NCBI GenBank assembly: GCA_045118535.1
Contig: JBGUYG010000030.1
Location: forward strand, 1 to 63,038
Source of the DNA: Paludibacteraceae bacterium
GTDB taxonomy: Bacteria; Bacteroidota; Bacteroidia; Bacteroidales; Paludibacteraceae
Reading direction: 5' to 3'
Length of the DNA stretch: 63,038 nt
Positions within the stretch are counted from its first letter, which is position 1; the number at the start of each line of letters is the position of its first letter. The notes below the pieces were generated by a model. The model saw only the letters and a program-made list of their open reading frames with translations, did not search any database and was not told the origin of the DNA. Shown piece by piece: positions 13,097 to 13,215 of the stretch. A program made the position numbers and the translations under genes.

Positions 13097-13215
13097 AGCT
13101 GCGAGCAGGAGTCGAACCTGCGACCATAGTATCACATTGAAGTATGTGGTGATTGATCCTTCACAGGAAATGCCATCACAACAGACTATTGCTCTACCAA
13201 TTGAGCTATCGCAGC
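13097..13215 (-). ncRNA. tRNA-like RNA with a 54-nt insertion in place of the anticodon loop (not a standard tRNA)
   Basis: Minus-strand read: GCTGCGA-TA-GCTC-AATTGGTA-GAGC-A-ATAGT-[54 nt]-ACTAT-GGTC-GCAGG-TTCGACT-CCTGC-TCGCAGC-T. The acceptor, D, anticodon and T stems are all perfect. U8, A14, G18G19, A21 and T54-T55-C56/A58 are present. The insertion (13131-13184) itself folds, containing TCCT-GTGA-AGGA, GTGAT/ATCAC and CACAT/ATGTG pairings. Confidence 0.75.

Follow-up and report, generated by a model that had tools for sequence, protein, structure and literature searches.

Introduction

Which substrates and partners bacterial RtcB has in nature is a question of long standing, and permuted tRNA genes as well as protein-dependent tRNA splicing are considered features of archaea and eukaryotes. 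TROVE/Ro proteins together with their tRNA-like partner RNAs form an RNA-repair platform (PMC7824862, PMC4201824). In the YrlA-Ro60 (Rsr) system, organized as rsr-yrlBA-rtcBA, a tRNA-mimicking non-coding RNA is encoded beside a large protein of the RNA-binding type and RtcB, an arrangement resembling the one described here (PMC4201824, PMC7790460, PMC7824862). The damage-sensing regulator is RtcR in that system; here, it is WYL in Bacteroidales and RtcR in Variovorax. In YrlA, the tRNA-like domain bears a protein-binding stem in the place of the anticodon arm, and the corresponding stem of our RNA may likewise bind a protein.

The locus lies in a 63-kb stretch of DNA (63,038 nucleotides; in the following, the window) from a Paludibacteraceae bacterium and comprises a tRNA-like RNA gene (T3) upstream of a gene for a RING/TerD protein. 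It differs from the YrlA-Ro60 system in that the YrlA model (RF02553) had no match in 12850-13600 of the window at E ≤ 10; in a related locus (L183, from Xylanibacter ruminicola KHT3), a single 26.7-bit match (cutoff 69) runs across the junction of two further tRNA-like genes, T1 and T2. T3 ends at its acceptor stem, whereas YrlA ends in the protein-binding stem and has its acceptor-like stem closed by a loop. The partner here, a RING/TerD protein, matches neither TROVE nor vWA in Pfam and has no Ro60 among its fold matches, and the RNA module carried by T3 occurs in the partner's mRNA leader as well. A full-text literature search returned no description of this RNA or protein, a mention in the RNA-repair survey of Burroughs and Aravind (2016) being possible, and the module RNA matches no Rfam family besides tRNA. 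The locus thus offers a concrete, widespread and testable pairing of a RING/TerD protein with a covarying RNA module.

Results

A tRNA-like RNA with a structured module in its anticodon arm

T3 is a full cloverleaf in which 54 nt (13131-13184) separate the anticodon-stem strands ATAGT (13185-13189) and ACTAT (13126-13130), as the original prediction had stated. The Rfam tRNA model (RF00005) covers 13215..13097 (-) end to end (58.3 bits, E=5e-10; gathering score 29) with about 50 nt inserted within the anticodon loop, and it was the only family matched at E ≤ 10 in 12850-13600, where no YrlA, ribozyme or intron family appeared. The acceptor stem GCTGCGA/TCGCAGC is accompanied by U8, A9 and the discriminator T, the D-arm reads GCTC-AATTGGTA-GAGC, the variable loop GGTC and the T-arm GCAGG-TTCGACT-CCTGC. 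G18, G19, A14, A21 and the T-loop TTCGA are invariant in 24 family members, so that the canonical cloverleaf and its tertiary bases are retained; the 54 nt stand in place of the canonical 7-nt anticodon loop with U33. ARAGORN in default mode left T3 uncalled and found no tmRNA anywhere in the window, and its intron mode called a tRNA-His(gtg) with a 47-nt intron. The insert parses into the following parts.

13097..13215 (-): tRNA-like RNA gene (type T3); Rfam tRNA 58.3 bits, family model R1 118.9 bits
13139..13180 (-): insert-topology module, from sequence parsing and a structure test on 24 family members
13173-13180 (-): P1 strand Y, TGTGATGG
13169-13172 (-): CATT linker
13157-13168 (-): P2 hairpin, TCCT-GTGA-AGGA
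13153-13156 (-): TCAA linker
13145-13152 (-): P1 strand X, TCACCACA
13139-13144 (-): single-stranded TACTTC

The rod-like module of about 45 nt combines an 8-bp P1, an internal loop (CAUUUCC / GGAYCAAU), a capped P2 and a single-stranded AUACUUC. P1 begins at loop nucleotide 5, and AUACUUC remains unpaired between P1 and the anticodon stem as a one-sided loop, a structure backed by covariation. The family proposed here, a tRNA-scaffolded RING-TerD-associated module, was defined by P1 (7-8 bp), an internal loop CAAUUNCC / GGNCNAA, P2 and (A/U)UACUYC, located ≤1.3 kb upstream of a RING-TerD gene. By this definition, the window holds one insert-type and three leader-type copies, all four inside 12932-13284.

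Double-sided compensatory changes occur in 24 of the 29 consensus pairs of the T3 family. Within the module helices, 83.7% of the cells are paired in the 24 family members, compared to 30-49% in slid controls; 11/12 pairs show double-sided changes, and none of 500 shuffles reached the observed covariation. T3 is kept in all 18 close relatives and, among 80 diverse Bacteroidales loci, in about 23-28. Because it is kept across diverse Bacteroidales with compensatory changes, T3 is under selection and is a genuine, conserved tRNA-shaped RNA. This bears out the original view that a decaying pseudogene would not look like this, and the check for conservation and covariation in related Bacteroidales that had been proposed alongside it turned out in its favor.

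The predicted folding of the insert fared less uniformly. The GNRA-capped hairpin TCCT-GTGA-AGGA and the helix enclosing it hold up, with the cap exchanging from GUGA to GAGA in relatives and the helix around P2 covarying. The longer helix TGTGATGG/TCACCACA, which had been put forward as an alternative fold, is real and equals the conserved P1, but it is no alternative. A second hairpin, CACAT-ACTTCA-ATGTG, has to be abandoned: relatives carry a different sequence in place of its 3' arm, and ACUUC is conserved as a single-stranded motif. Nor is the CUGUU start of the loop a fixed feature, as it varies even among relatives of about 88% identity (TTTGTT, GTC-TT, GT--TT).

Permuted copies of the module surround T3 and precede the downstream gene

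The insertion is no one-off. The same module is present three more times around T3 in free-standing, circularly permuted form, the last copy belonging to the mRNA leader of the downstream gene, just before its start codon.

13221..13291 (-): free-standing unit 1 (permuted module), X/Y pair 6/7, P2 closes with 6 bp; P2a GAAAGG 13286-13291, ACAAG, X TGTGACT 13274-13280, TACTTC 13268-13273, variable hairpin, Y AGTCATT 13233-13239, CAATTT 13227-13232, P2b CCTTTC 13221-13226
13006..13082 (-): free-standing unit 2 (permuted module), X/Y pair 7/7; P2a CGAGG 13078-13082, CCTAAG, X AGAGACT 13065-13071, TACTCC 13059-13064, hairpin, Y AGTTTCT 13017-13023, CAATTA 13011-13016, P2b CCTCG 13006-13010
12930..12996 (-): free-standing unit 3 (leader unit, permuted module), ending 17 nt from the ATG at 12913; CAAGG-TCAAG, X GCTGGCT 12980-12986, TACTTC 12974-12979, hairpin, Y AGTCGGC 12940-12946, CTATTA 12934-12939, CCTG 12930-12933

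A tRNA-like gene nested in the loop of a larger unit was considered and rejected, as each unit closes on its own P2.

Permuted units are frequent among the relatives, with 132 of them in 71 loci. They comprise 95 distinct X/Y strand pairs, of which 59 pair at 7/7 and 18 at 6/7 positions (shuffles give 4.6 and 11.9, respectively), and 67 distinct X sequences. The leader unit is near-universal, with a WTACTHC motif at -60..-95 of the RING-gene start codon in 75/80 loci. Within the 80 loci, 131 units fall ≤1.3 kb upstream of the RING gene, compared to two weak matches in the remaining 792 kb of sequence. On this distribution, module and RING-TerD gene are inseparable.

The arrangement resembles autoregulatory leaders that imitate an RNA ligand of their protein, such as the thrS operator and ribosomal-protein operators: one RNA module is shared by a stable RNA and the region directly preceding the presumed binder's start codon. 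It differs in that the leader copy is a circular permutation and not a straight mimic, and binding and repression would here be predictions.

The downstream gene encodes a RING/TerD protein

10649..12913 (-): 754-aa gene, presumed protein partner of the module (Pfam, NCBIfam, AlphaFold2)

The 754-aa protein consists of a Prok-RING_4 zinc finger (~118-143), a helical-repeat middle part and a TerD-like beta-sandwich C-terminal region (DMDLSA...HSGD...E). Its exact sequence is not on record; relatives were reached via homologs, and the related loci were collected by a search with a 16-sequence protein alignment. Among family members, Pfam detected Prok-RING_4 in 36/41 and TerD in 6/41. NCBIfam NF041916 matched the protein with 168 bits, under its cutoff of 600, and PHROG 33734, annotated as 'unknown function', matches it as well. 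The AlphaFold2 model (pLDDT 89.9) retrieved no fold match from the PDB by Foldseek at E<0.001 (best E=0.014), and no nuclease domain was recognizable by Pfam, Foldseek against the PDB or profile-versus-PDB comparison. The same three approaches led us to reject a Ro60/TROVE identity. The fold thus bears no similarity to Ro60/TROVE, which speaks against a role of T3 as a Y-RNA-like partner.

Proteins of this family are 690-790 aa long; at least 579 stretches match them in genomes representing species, and they form 1541 clusters at 50% identity, in a setting of gut and rumen Bacteroidales and their phages. Type III toxin-antitoxin systems (ToxI/ToxN) similarly combine a protein gene with adjacent tandem arrays of structured RNA, in phages as well as in bacteria. 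In contrast to their near-identical repeats, the units described here are diverged, the 690-790-aa RING/TerD protein is not a ToxN/AbiQ endoribonuclease, and PADLOC returned no defence-system match for it.

RNA-repair genes adjoin the cluster in relatives

In relatives, the gene order is WYL | RtcB - tRNA-likes - RING gene. The RtcB RNA ligase gene adjoins the cluster in 10/80 loci, and tRNA-likes are present in all ten of these, compared to 18 of the 70 others (about 30% of the loci overall). In Variovorax, the RING-TerD homolog adjoins RtcR and has a sigma-54 promoter. By tblastn, RtcB and WYL are absent from the window; together with the RtcB-adjacent fraction of only 10/80, this counts against a partner-RNA role of T3. 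The window cluster has also lost the 5' part of a second tRNA-like gene.

13296..13314 (-): remnant of T1, AAAATCCAGCCCGCCACTC, covering the 3' part of the T-loop and the acceptor 3' strand (alignment with L138, L121 and L131)

Intact T1 paralogs consist of acceptor stem, T-arm and module only, and T1 and most T2 paralogs have no space for an anticodon loop. One locus (L212), considered as an insert-free allele, has only an ordinary tRNA-Pro where the tRNA-like would sit. Taken together, the module RNA and the protein look like an RNA-protein system not described so far, with ties to the RNA-repair genes of bacteria and phages.

Phage relatives carry insert-bearing and permuted tRNAs

Phage relatives of the RING protein adjoin arrays of the motif, tRNAs that have perfect exons after removal of the insert, and a tRNA-Phe in permuted form. 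In two phage loci (L229 and L235), identical perfect Asn exons beside RING homologs flank diverged inserts; in further phage tRNAs, insert removal restores Asn, Cys, Ile or Thr arms. Inserts of the TTACT class are present in tRNAs of the phage contigs L001, L017, L023, L083 and L085. The permuted tRNA-Phe of L245 is bracketed by module halves and, with its ends held by the module, compares to the permuted tRNA genes of Cyanidioschyzon merolae. A viral contig encoding a 42%-identical RING homolog has a unit immediately preceding the homolog gene, and L245 and L244 carry bacterial-type units. Phages also carry related motifs on tRNAs and minihelices in several topologies, some with the acceptor stem closed by a loop as in YrlA. 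Since the module-only model R2 had no match in 100 viral loci at E ≤ 1 and X/Y complementarity in L098-type viral arrays was no higher than in the control, we claim for these only shared motifs and linkage to the protein. A known phage origin of the window region was rejected: blastn against 50,697 phage records was empty, and the window sequence is chromosomal, of Prevotellaceae type.

The bacterial RNA probably does not decode

The original prediction held that the RNA cannot decode as it stands. Intron-aware ARAGORN on 16 orthologs and 8 paralogs returned scattered 'anticodons' with more than ten identities among the orthologs, the discriminator base of T3 orthologs may be T, A, C or G, and excision restores no canonical anticodon arm in many family members. 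As the orthologs have neither a common anticodon nor a common discriminator base, the sequences support this view, and the bacterial T3 RNA probably does not decode. Descent from tRNA-Asn is plausible: in the window, L141 and L199, an arm with the Asn anticodon GUU is regained on excision. The restorable tRNA-Asn arms and the perfect phage exons speak against a partner-RNA role.

Group I introns of bacterial and phage tRNA genes likewise interrupt the anticodon loop, but they exceed 200 nt and have a P1-P9 core; the insert of 47-54 nt has no such core and matched no Rfam intron at E ≤ 10, in line with the earlier statement that it is too short. Archaeal and eukaryal bulge-helix-bulge introns (EndA and RtcB) share with our system the short anticodon-arm inserts, a nearby RtcB-type ligase and, in phages, exons that are canonical after excision. 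T3 lacks bulge-helix-bulge geometry, in which two 3-nt bulges enclose a 4-bp helix at the splice sites; P1 instead starts at loop nucleotide 5 and AUACUUC forms a one-sided loop. Moreover, possible exon junctions lie not at the canonical 37/38 but variously at 28/29, 30/31, 33/34, 36/37 or 38/39, at a variable distance from the motif, no EndA-like domain was seen, and the bacterial orthologs keep no anticodon.

Discussion

We consider the chances about even that T3 serves the RING-TerD protein as a Y-RNA-like partner RNA in a response to RNA damage. T3 would then be a non-decoding, tRNA-shaped small RNA in which a module of about 45 nt replaces the anticodon loop, and we infer that this module is the recognition element of the RING/helical-repeat/TerD protein encoded directly downstream. 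The tRNA body could supply folding, end-processing and stability, and perhaps a tRNA-like surface for partner enzymes. Through the permuted copies in its own mRNA leader, the protein may feed back on its own synthesis, and RNA and protein may act together in RNA damage or repair, like Ro60 with tRNA-like Y RNAs beside RtcB. We favor this explanation because of the covariation, the lack of decoding, the permuted leader copies, the exclusive linkage, the RtcB/WYL/RtcR context and the absence of a nuclease domain. That the element is a selected tRNA mimic, probably a ligand for a protein, had been proposed before, and the comparison among relatives supports this: the element is conserved and covarying, its orthologs share no anticodon or discriminator base, and its insert is strictly linked to one protein gene.

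The main rival is splicing by cleavage plus RtcB ligation. The original prediction had dismissed splicing since bacteria lack the archaeal endonuclease, a dismissal that does not stand given the RtcB gene next door in relatives and the perfect phage exons around the inserts. These exons and the module-bracketed permuted tRNA-Phe point to cleavage and ligation and not to simple binding. In its broad form, which we regard as somewhat unlikely, the module is the cis-signal of protein-dependent RNA cleavage and RtcB ligation in bacteria and phages, a third kind of tRNA splicing; this pathway would excise the inserts of phage tRNAs (Asn, Ile, Cys, Thr), re-join the permuted tRNA-Phe and perhaps also edit the RING-TerD mRNA leader in the manner of HAC1/XBP1. 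If true, it would be neither group I nor bulge-helix-bulge and would give bacterial RtcB a dedicated physiological substrate.

For T3 itself, an intron-bearing tRNA is unlikely: the module would be a small non-group-I intron signal, an endonuclease would cut the loop that separates P1 from the anticodon stem on each of its two strands, RtcB would join the exons, and the window element would mature to a decoder resembling tRNA-Asn(GUU) or His GUG. Removal of 47 nt indeed yields ATAGT-CTGTTAT-ACTAT, called tRNA-Asn by ARAGORN (CTGTTAG in L141, CTGTTAA in L199), RtcB lies directly upstream in relatives with tRNA-likes at every RtcB-adjacent locus, and the phage Asn, Cys, Ile and Thr arms and the L245 permutation fit as well. 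This is opposed by the missing common anticodon, the unconstrained discriminator base, indels in the 'anticodon' among relatives of about 88% identity and T1 and most T2 paralogs with no space for an anticodon loop. The shifting junctions, the lack of a bulge-helix-bulge, the partner protein without nuclease domain and the absence of RtcB from the window argue in the same direction.

It is improbable that the module is a new small self-cleaving ribozyme whose products, with 2',3'-cyclic phosphate and 5'-OH ends, would be RtcB substrates, the neighboring protein being a passenger or chaperone. A compact core of two helices whose unpaired nucleotides are highly conserved, the natural occurrence of circular permutations (typical of such ribozymes), tandem arrays, phage association and RtcB close by in some loci would suit a ribozyme. 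However, no Rfam ribozyme family (hammerhead, twister, pistol, hatchet, hairpin, HDV-like) matched the window cluster or L183 at E ≤ 10, no copy of the module occurs apart from the RING-TerD gene, whereas an autonomous ribozyme would be expected at other sites as well, most loci are without RtcB, and a cleavage site is not definable from the sequences.

Equally doubtful is a purely cis-acting leader, in which the units regulate or process the RING message and the tRNA-likes serve as RNase P/Z 'punctuation' between RtcB and RING messages, with no function in trans. All elements are co-oriented and separated from the gene by no terminator-like site (12800-13650), nearly all loci have the leader unit compared to tRNA-likes in about 30% of them, and L212 has its tRNA-Pro in the tRNA-like position. 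Co-location of module and gene could result from cis-regulation alone, which counts against a partner-RNA role. What a leader leaves unexplained is the covarying module in a tRNA-like anticodon arm and its grafting by phages onto tRNAs and minihelices in several topologies.

A decaying tRNA pseudogene disrupted by a small mobile element or a random insertion is very improbable: a TGTGAT direct repeat flanks part of the window insert and rearrangement has cost the locus RtcB, WYL and the 5' half of T1, but this repeat is not conserved, the insert is unique in the window, and scaffold and insert are conserved across Bacteroidales families with compensatory changes, a covariation that refutes decay, the 67 distinct X strands not being recently spread, near-identical copies.

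The module is thus found on tRNA-like bodies, in mRNA leaders and in phage tRNAs, in a system recurrently under WYL/RtcR and beside RtcB, and any of the mechanisms considered (Y-RNA-like RNP, splicing signal or ribozyme) would establish a new class of RNA and assign a function to a large family of 'hypothetical' proteins.

A repeat or MITE origin of the insert was rejected, its sequence occurring once in the window. The Bacteroidetes-type -7 consensus is TAnnTTTG, and a candidate box of this type, identified by sequence match only, lies upstream of the RNA cluster.

13398..13405 (-): candidate Bacteroidetes-type -7 promoter box, TATTTTTG

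A structured tRNA-like RNA containing a permutable module

The element is a conserved, structured tRNA-like RNA, and the insert that it bears is a copy of a permutable module. The Rfam tRNA model aligned with all 71 positions to 13215..13097 on the minus strand (58.3 bits, E = 5e-10), with an excess of about 50 nucleotides at the anticodon loop. Parsing and the gene neighbourhood gave the following features; T1, T2 and T3 denote the tRNA-like gene types of this locus, the window element being a T3.

Minus strand: acceptor stem, 7 bp
Minus strand: U8/A9, present
Minus strand: D-arm, GCTC/GAGC with G18G19
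Minus strand: anticodon stem, ATAGT/ACTAT
13184..13131, minus strand: anticodon 'loop', 54 nt
Minus strand: T-arm, GCAGG-TTCGACT-CCTGC
Minus strand: discriminator base, T
13563-15773: Wzc; the element lies downstream of it
13296-13314, minus strand: 19-nt remnant, all that is left of T1 in the window
10649-12913, minus strand: 754-aa ORF (RING-TerD gene), starting 184 nt downstream of the element

The Rfam match and the parsing confirmed the original prediction of a complete cloverleaf in which a 54-nt insertion replaces the anticodon loop. tRNA was the only Rfam family matched in the region, even at E ≤ 10, ARAGORN in default mode made no call, and the insert occurs once within the window.

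The element is a tRNA-like RNA under selection for structure. An alignment of 24 non-redundant T2/T3 elements (T2 being a paralog bearing the same kind of insert) yielded a consensus of a cloverleaf plus two extra helices, with double-sided compensatory changes in 24 of 29 pairs; the structure is thus kept and covaries in relatives rather than decaying at random. For the insert alone, helices P1 (8 bp) and P2 (4 bp) were defined: 83.7% of their cells were paired compared to 30-49% with slid partners, 11 of 12 pairs showed double-sided changes, and none of 500 shuffles attained the observed covariation. The unpaired segments cAUUUCC, GGAyCAAu and (A/U)UACUUC are conserved and the P2 cap is variable (GUGA, GAGA, UUAU, or longer). 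The second hairpin originally proposed, CACAT/ATGTG, was not conserved in alignments of relatives. A family model scored insert-bearing elements at 87-119 bits and ordinary tRNAs at 30-69 bits, and its insert-bearing matches were always located just upstream of the RING gene. One match of 194 nt (L181, 4616-4809; 87 bits) is a tRNA-like element with an insert far larger than usual.

The module recurs in permuted form in the gene leader

The motif WTACTYC occurs four times within 300 nt on the minus strand of the window, and lies at -60..-95 relative to the start codon in 75/80 loci. Alignment of the leaders revealed the order AAGG-UCAAG-X-(A/U)UACUUC-variable hairpin-Y-CAAUUACCUU, X and Y being the strands of P1. 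The leader unit consists of the insert's parts in circularly permuted order; both ends of its chain lie at P2, and a hairpin stands where the insert has the anticodon stem. Across 81 sources examined, 71 loci contained 132 such units, whose X and Y strands made up 95 distinct combinations, of which 59 paired at 7/7 positions (4.6 in shuffles) and 18 at 6/7 (11.9 in shuffles). Every unit is closed by its own P2, as in GAAAGG/CCUUUC and CGAGG/CCUCG of the window. The module is exclusive to, and inseparable from, the RING-TerD gene: the 1.3 kb preceding it in the various loci contain 131 units, the remaining sequence (792 kb) gave two weak regex matches, and no copies occur elsewhere in the 63-kb window.

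Unit 3, the copy nearest the ATG, starts at 12992-13000 (minus strand) with UUAACAAGGU, as it does at the corresponding place in most of L139-L218. This leader-unit start shares the 9-mer UAACAAGGU with the 16S rRNA 3' region (GUAACAAGGUAACC, which we take to be universally conserved); by rough estimate, this could be chance.

Genomic context and links to RNA repair

The window is bacterial chromosome without a match to known phages. Its genes include Wza/Wzc for capsule export, one for a sigma factor of the sigma-70 family, and three for ordinary tRNAs. On its minus strand, a promoter-like box is followed by the T1 remnant, unit 1, T3, unit 2, unit 3 and the ATG, and no terminator-like site was found among these parts. 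At 7342-9083 (plus strand), a DUF6996/DUF6997 protein gene precedes an N6/N4 DNA methylase, which looks like a restriction-modification-type pair near the RNA cluster.

The 754-aa protein has thousands of approximately 87%-identical relatives in metagenomes. In 18 contigs of relatives, a divergent WYL regulator, the RNA ligase RtcB, a 700-800-nt gap and the 754-aa gene follow each other, and the element was found within the gap in 18/18 (88-91% identity). Up to three tRNA-like genes occupy this gap; T1 comprises only acceptor stem, T-arm and module, without D-arm or anticodon arm. As only the T1 remnant is left in the window and RtcB and WYL are absent, the window locus is a rearranged, reduced version of this arrangement.

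Scanning species-representative genomes with a 16-protein alignment returned at least 579 relatives among at least 600 matched stretches, including 80 Bacteroidales loci (among them Prevotella, Xylanibacter ruminicola KHT3, Segatella copri, Alistipes, Paludibacteraceae and Muribaculaceae). RtcB adjoins 10/80 loci and a WYL regulator about 20/80; tRNA-like genes were present in 10/10 RtcB-adjacent loci versus 18/70 others. In Variovorax (L247), a homolog 51% identical to P0231, itself an approximately 30%-identical family member, is oriented divergently to RtcR and preceded by a textbook sigma-54 promoter (CTGGCACGGGCATTGCA, at about 5928-5944). RtcR activates the RtcBA repair operon in response to damaged tRNAs (PMC7790460). 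The system turns up repeatedly next to RtcB, WYL and RtcR; in phages, it lies alongside or within tRNAs.

Downstream of the Variovorax homolog (8630-8760), GCCTTCCTTCTAA is present twice at a distance of about 70 nt; the pair resembles the GTTACTTCTAA arrays of phages and may be a proteobacterial version of the RNA partner. The Segatella copri HDE04 'extrachromosomal' contig (L215, 182 kb) carries both the RING-TerD gene and a T3-type RNA, which suggests that the system is mobile. In relatives, the surroundings of the RING gene differ (UDG, HIRAN, AAA ATPase, acetyltransferase), much as in variable regions or defence islands. L146 bears a 76-nt tRNA in T2 position (4548-4623; tRNA-Ile with the unusual anticodon AAU by ARAGORN). 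In L183 (4448-4508), a below-threshold Rfam YrlA match (26.7 bits, cutoff 69, E = 0.002) covers the T1 3' half and T2 5' half, a 'permuted' tRNA-like arrangement from adjacent genes.

The RING-TerD protein

The 754-aa ORF matches Prok-RING_4 weakly and belongs, distantly, to NCBIfam family NF041916 ('MXAN_6230/SCO0854 RING domain protein'). Within the family, Pfam Prok-RING_4 was detected in 36/41 members and TerD in 6/41 (best E = 4e-6), the latter in agreement with the invariant DMDLSA...HSGD...E motifs. A confident AlphaFold2 model (41 homologs; pLDDT 89.9, pTM 0.89) predicts a zinc finger within the N-terminal region, a long middle part built of helical repeats, and a C-terminal domain rich in beta structure. 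Foldseek found no PDB match at E < 0.001; its weak matches were HEAT-like solenoids and beta-sandwiches, and Ro60 was not among them. A profile search of PDB sequences returned nothing, PADLOC gave no match, no nuclease domain was recognisable, and PHROGs places the protein in family 33734, 'unknown function'.

Decoding, excision and possible roles

All single excisions restoring a canonical anticodon arm were enumerated. They gave tRNA-Asn(GUU) for the window (CUGUUAU), L141 (CUGUUAG) and L199 (CUGUUAA) and Tyr- or His-like GUN loops for some other elements, whereas many T3 elements, and T2 elements for the most part, had no such excision; the link to tRNA-Asn originally drawn is plausible. 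Intron-aware ARAGORN accepted 23/24 elements, with identities scattered over His, Thr, Stop, Arg, Tyr, Asn, Glu, Met, Trp, Ser, Lys, SeC and Leu within a single family of orthologs and paralogs. The discriminator base varies freely, and indels occur in the 'anticodon' region among approximately 88%-identical relatives. Judged from these sequences, the family probably originated from an insert-bearing tRNA-Asn-type gene, its bacterial members not being maintained as decoders. The predicted inability to decode is therefore probably right for the tRNA-like RNA in bacteria, with the reservation that the window copy could give an Asn-like product if cut and re-joined.

In viruses, all 25 loci encoding relatives of the L098 homolog carry TTACTT[CA] arrays (4-7 motifs, one about every 80 nt) a short way downstream of the RING-TerD homolog, and several end in a tRNA whose exons form a perfect tRNA-Asn arm. 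L229 and L235 read CG|insert|AGG-CUGUUAA-CCUCG with diverged inserts. As these arrays share the motifs UUACUUC, AAUUNCC and GGCUAU, but have no X/Y helix above control, and as the Bacteroidales module model did not detect viral inserts, we treat them as related, not identical. The 100-kb viral contig L245 encodes a 42%-identical homolog. Bacterial-type units whose P1 pairs at 7/7 positions stand immediately ahead of this gene and also among genuine tRNAs. At about 1287-1445, two module halves bracket a circularly permuted tRNA: X-UACUUC, 3' half, TAAC (a 4-nt linker at the acceptor), 5' half ending CUGAAAU, and Y-CGAUUACC. When re-joined, the halves are tRNA-Phe(GAA) by ARAGORN. After the 5' half, GGCCATTTTTTTT looks like a terminator. 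In five phage arrays, T-arm/acceptor minihelices closed by a loop lie between motif halves.

We infer that the module may be the RNA handle of the RING-TerD protein, that the tRNA-like RNA would act as its Y RNA-like trans partner, that the leader copies could exert feedback control, and that the system may act in an RNA-damage response; we give this joint reading about an even chance. Of the systems described so far, Ro60/TROVE comes nearest, in which a tRNA-like Y RNA is part of an RNA-repair platform (PMC7824862, PMC4201824). In the main rival reading, itself rather unlikely, the module would mark where cleavage and ligation by RtcB take place, and would represent a new kind of tRNA intron. 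The phage tRNA exons and the permuted tRNA-Phe of L245 speak for this rival; in the bacterial family, the lack of a conserved anticodon argues against it. The two are compatible, since cleavage and ligation could be recruited by a protein that binds the module. Less likely are a self-cleaving ribozyme, a leader that acts purely in cis or, for the element, a pseudogene. Rfam 15 has no family for the module, and full-text literature searches gave no description of the RNA or protein, although the genes around the protein's own may have been mentioned before.

Other insert classes on viral contigs

More than 120 viral contigs, divisible into classes, matched a generic search pattern in which 55-85 nt separate a canonical D-arm from a T-arm. 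Excision restored 16/17 of a eukaryote-like tRNA-Tyr(GUA) class on giant-virus contigs, 17 distinct genes with the intron one nucleotide 3' of the anticodon (L002, L012, L028, L035, L042 and others; some contigs are GVMAG). Removal restored 6/11 of the 'TTACT' class (Asn, Cys, Ile or Thr arms), and simple excision a canonical arm in 4/26 of the 'ACAGCA' class. Some insert-bearing viral tRNAs have RtcB or a RING-TerD homolog in their vicinity. The 'ACAGCA' class comprises second, different inserts of about 40-50 nt in phage tRNA anticodon arms ('AAAAAUG-hairpin-nAACAGCAA'), about 26 distinct ones among L001-L120 (for example L007, L018, L105). Many are on 40-140-kb contigs of sample 3300045988, and RtcB is close by in L044 and L047. 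Among the loci with RING homologs, L229 (5813-5885) has an amber-suppressor-type tRNA (anticodon CTA, 'Pyl' by ARAGORN) in the adjoining array, and L233 and L235 encode tmRNAs.
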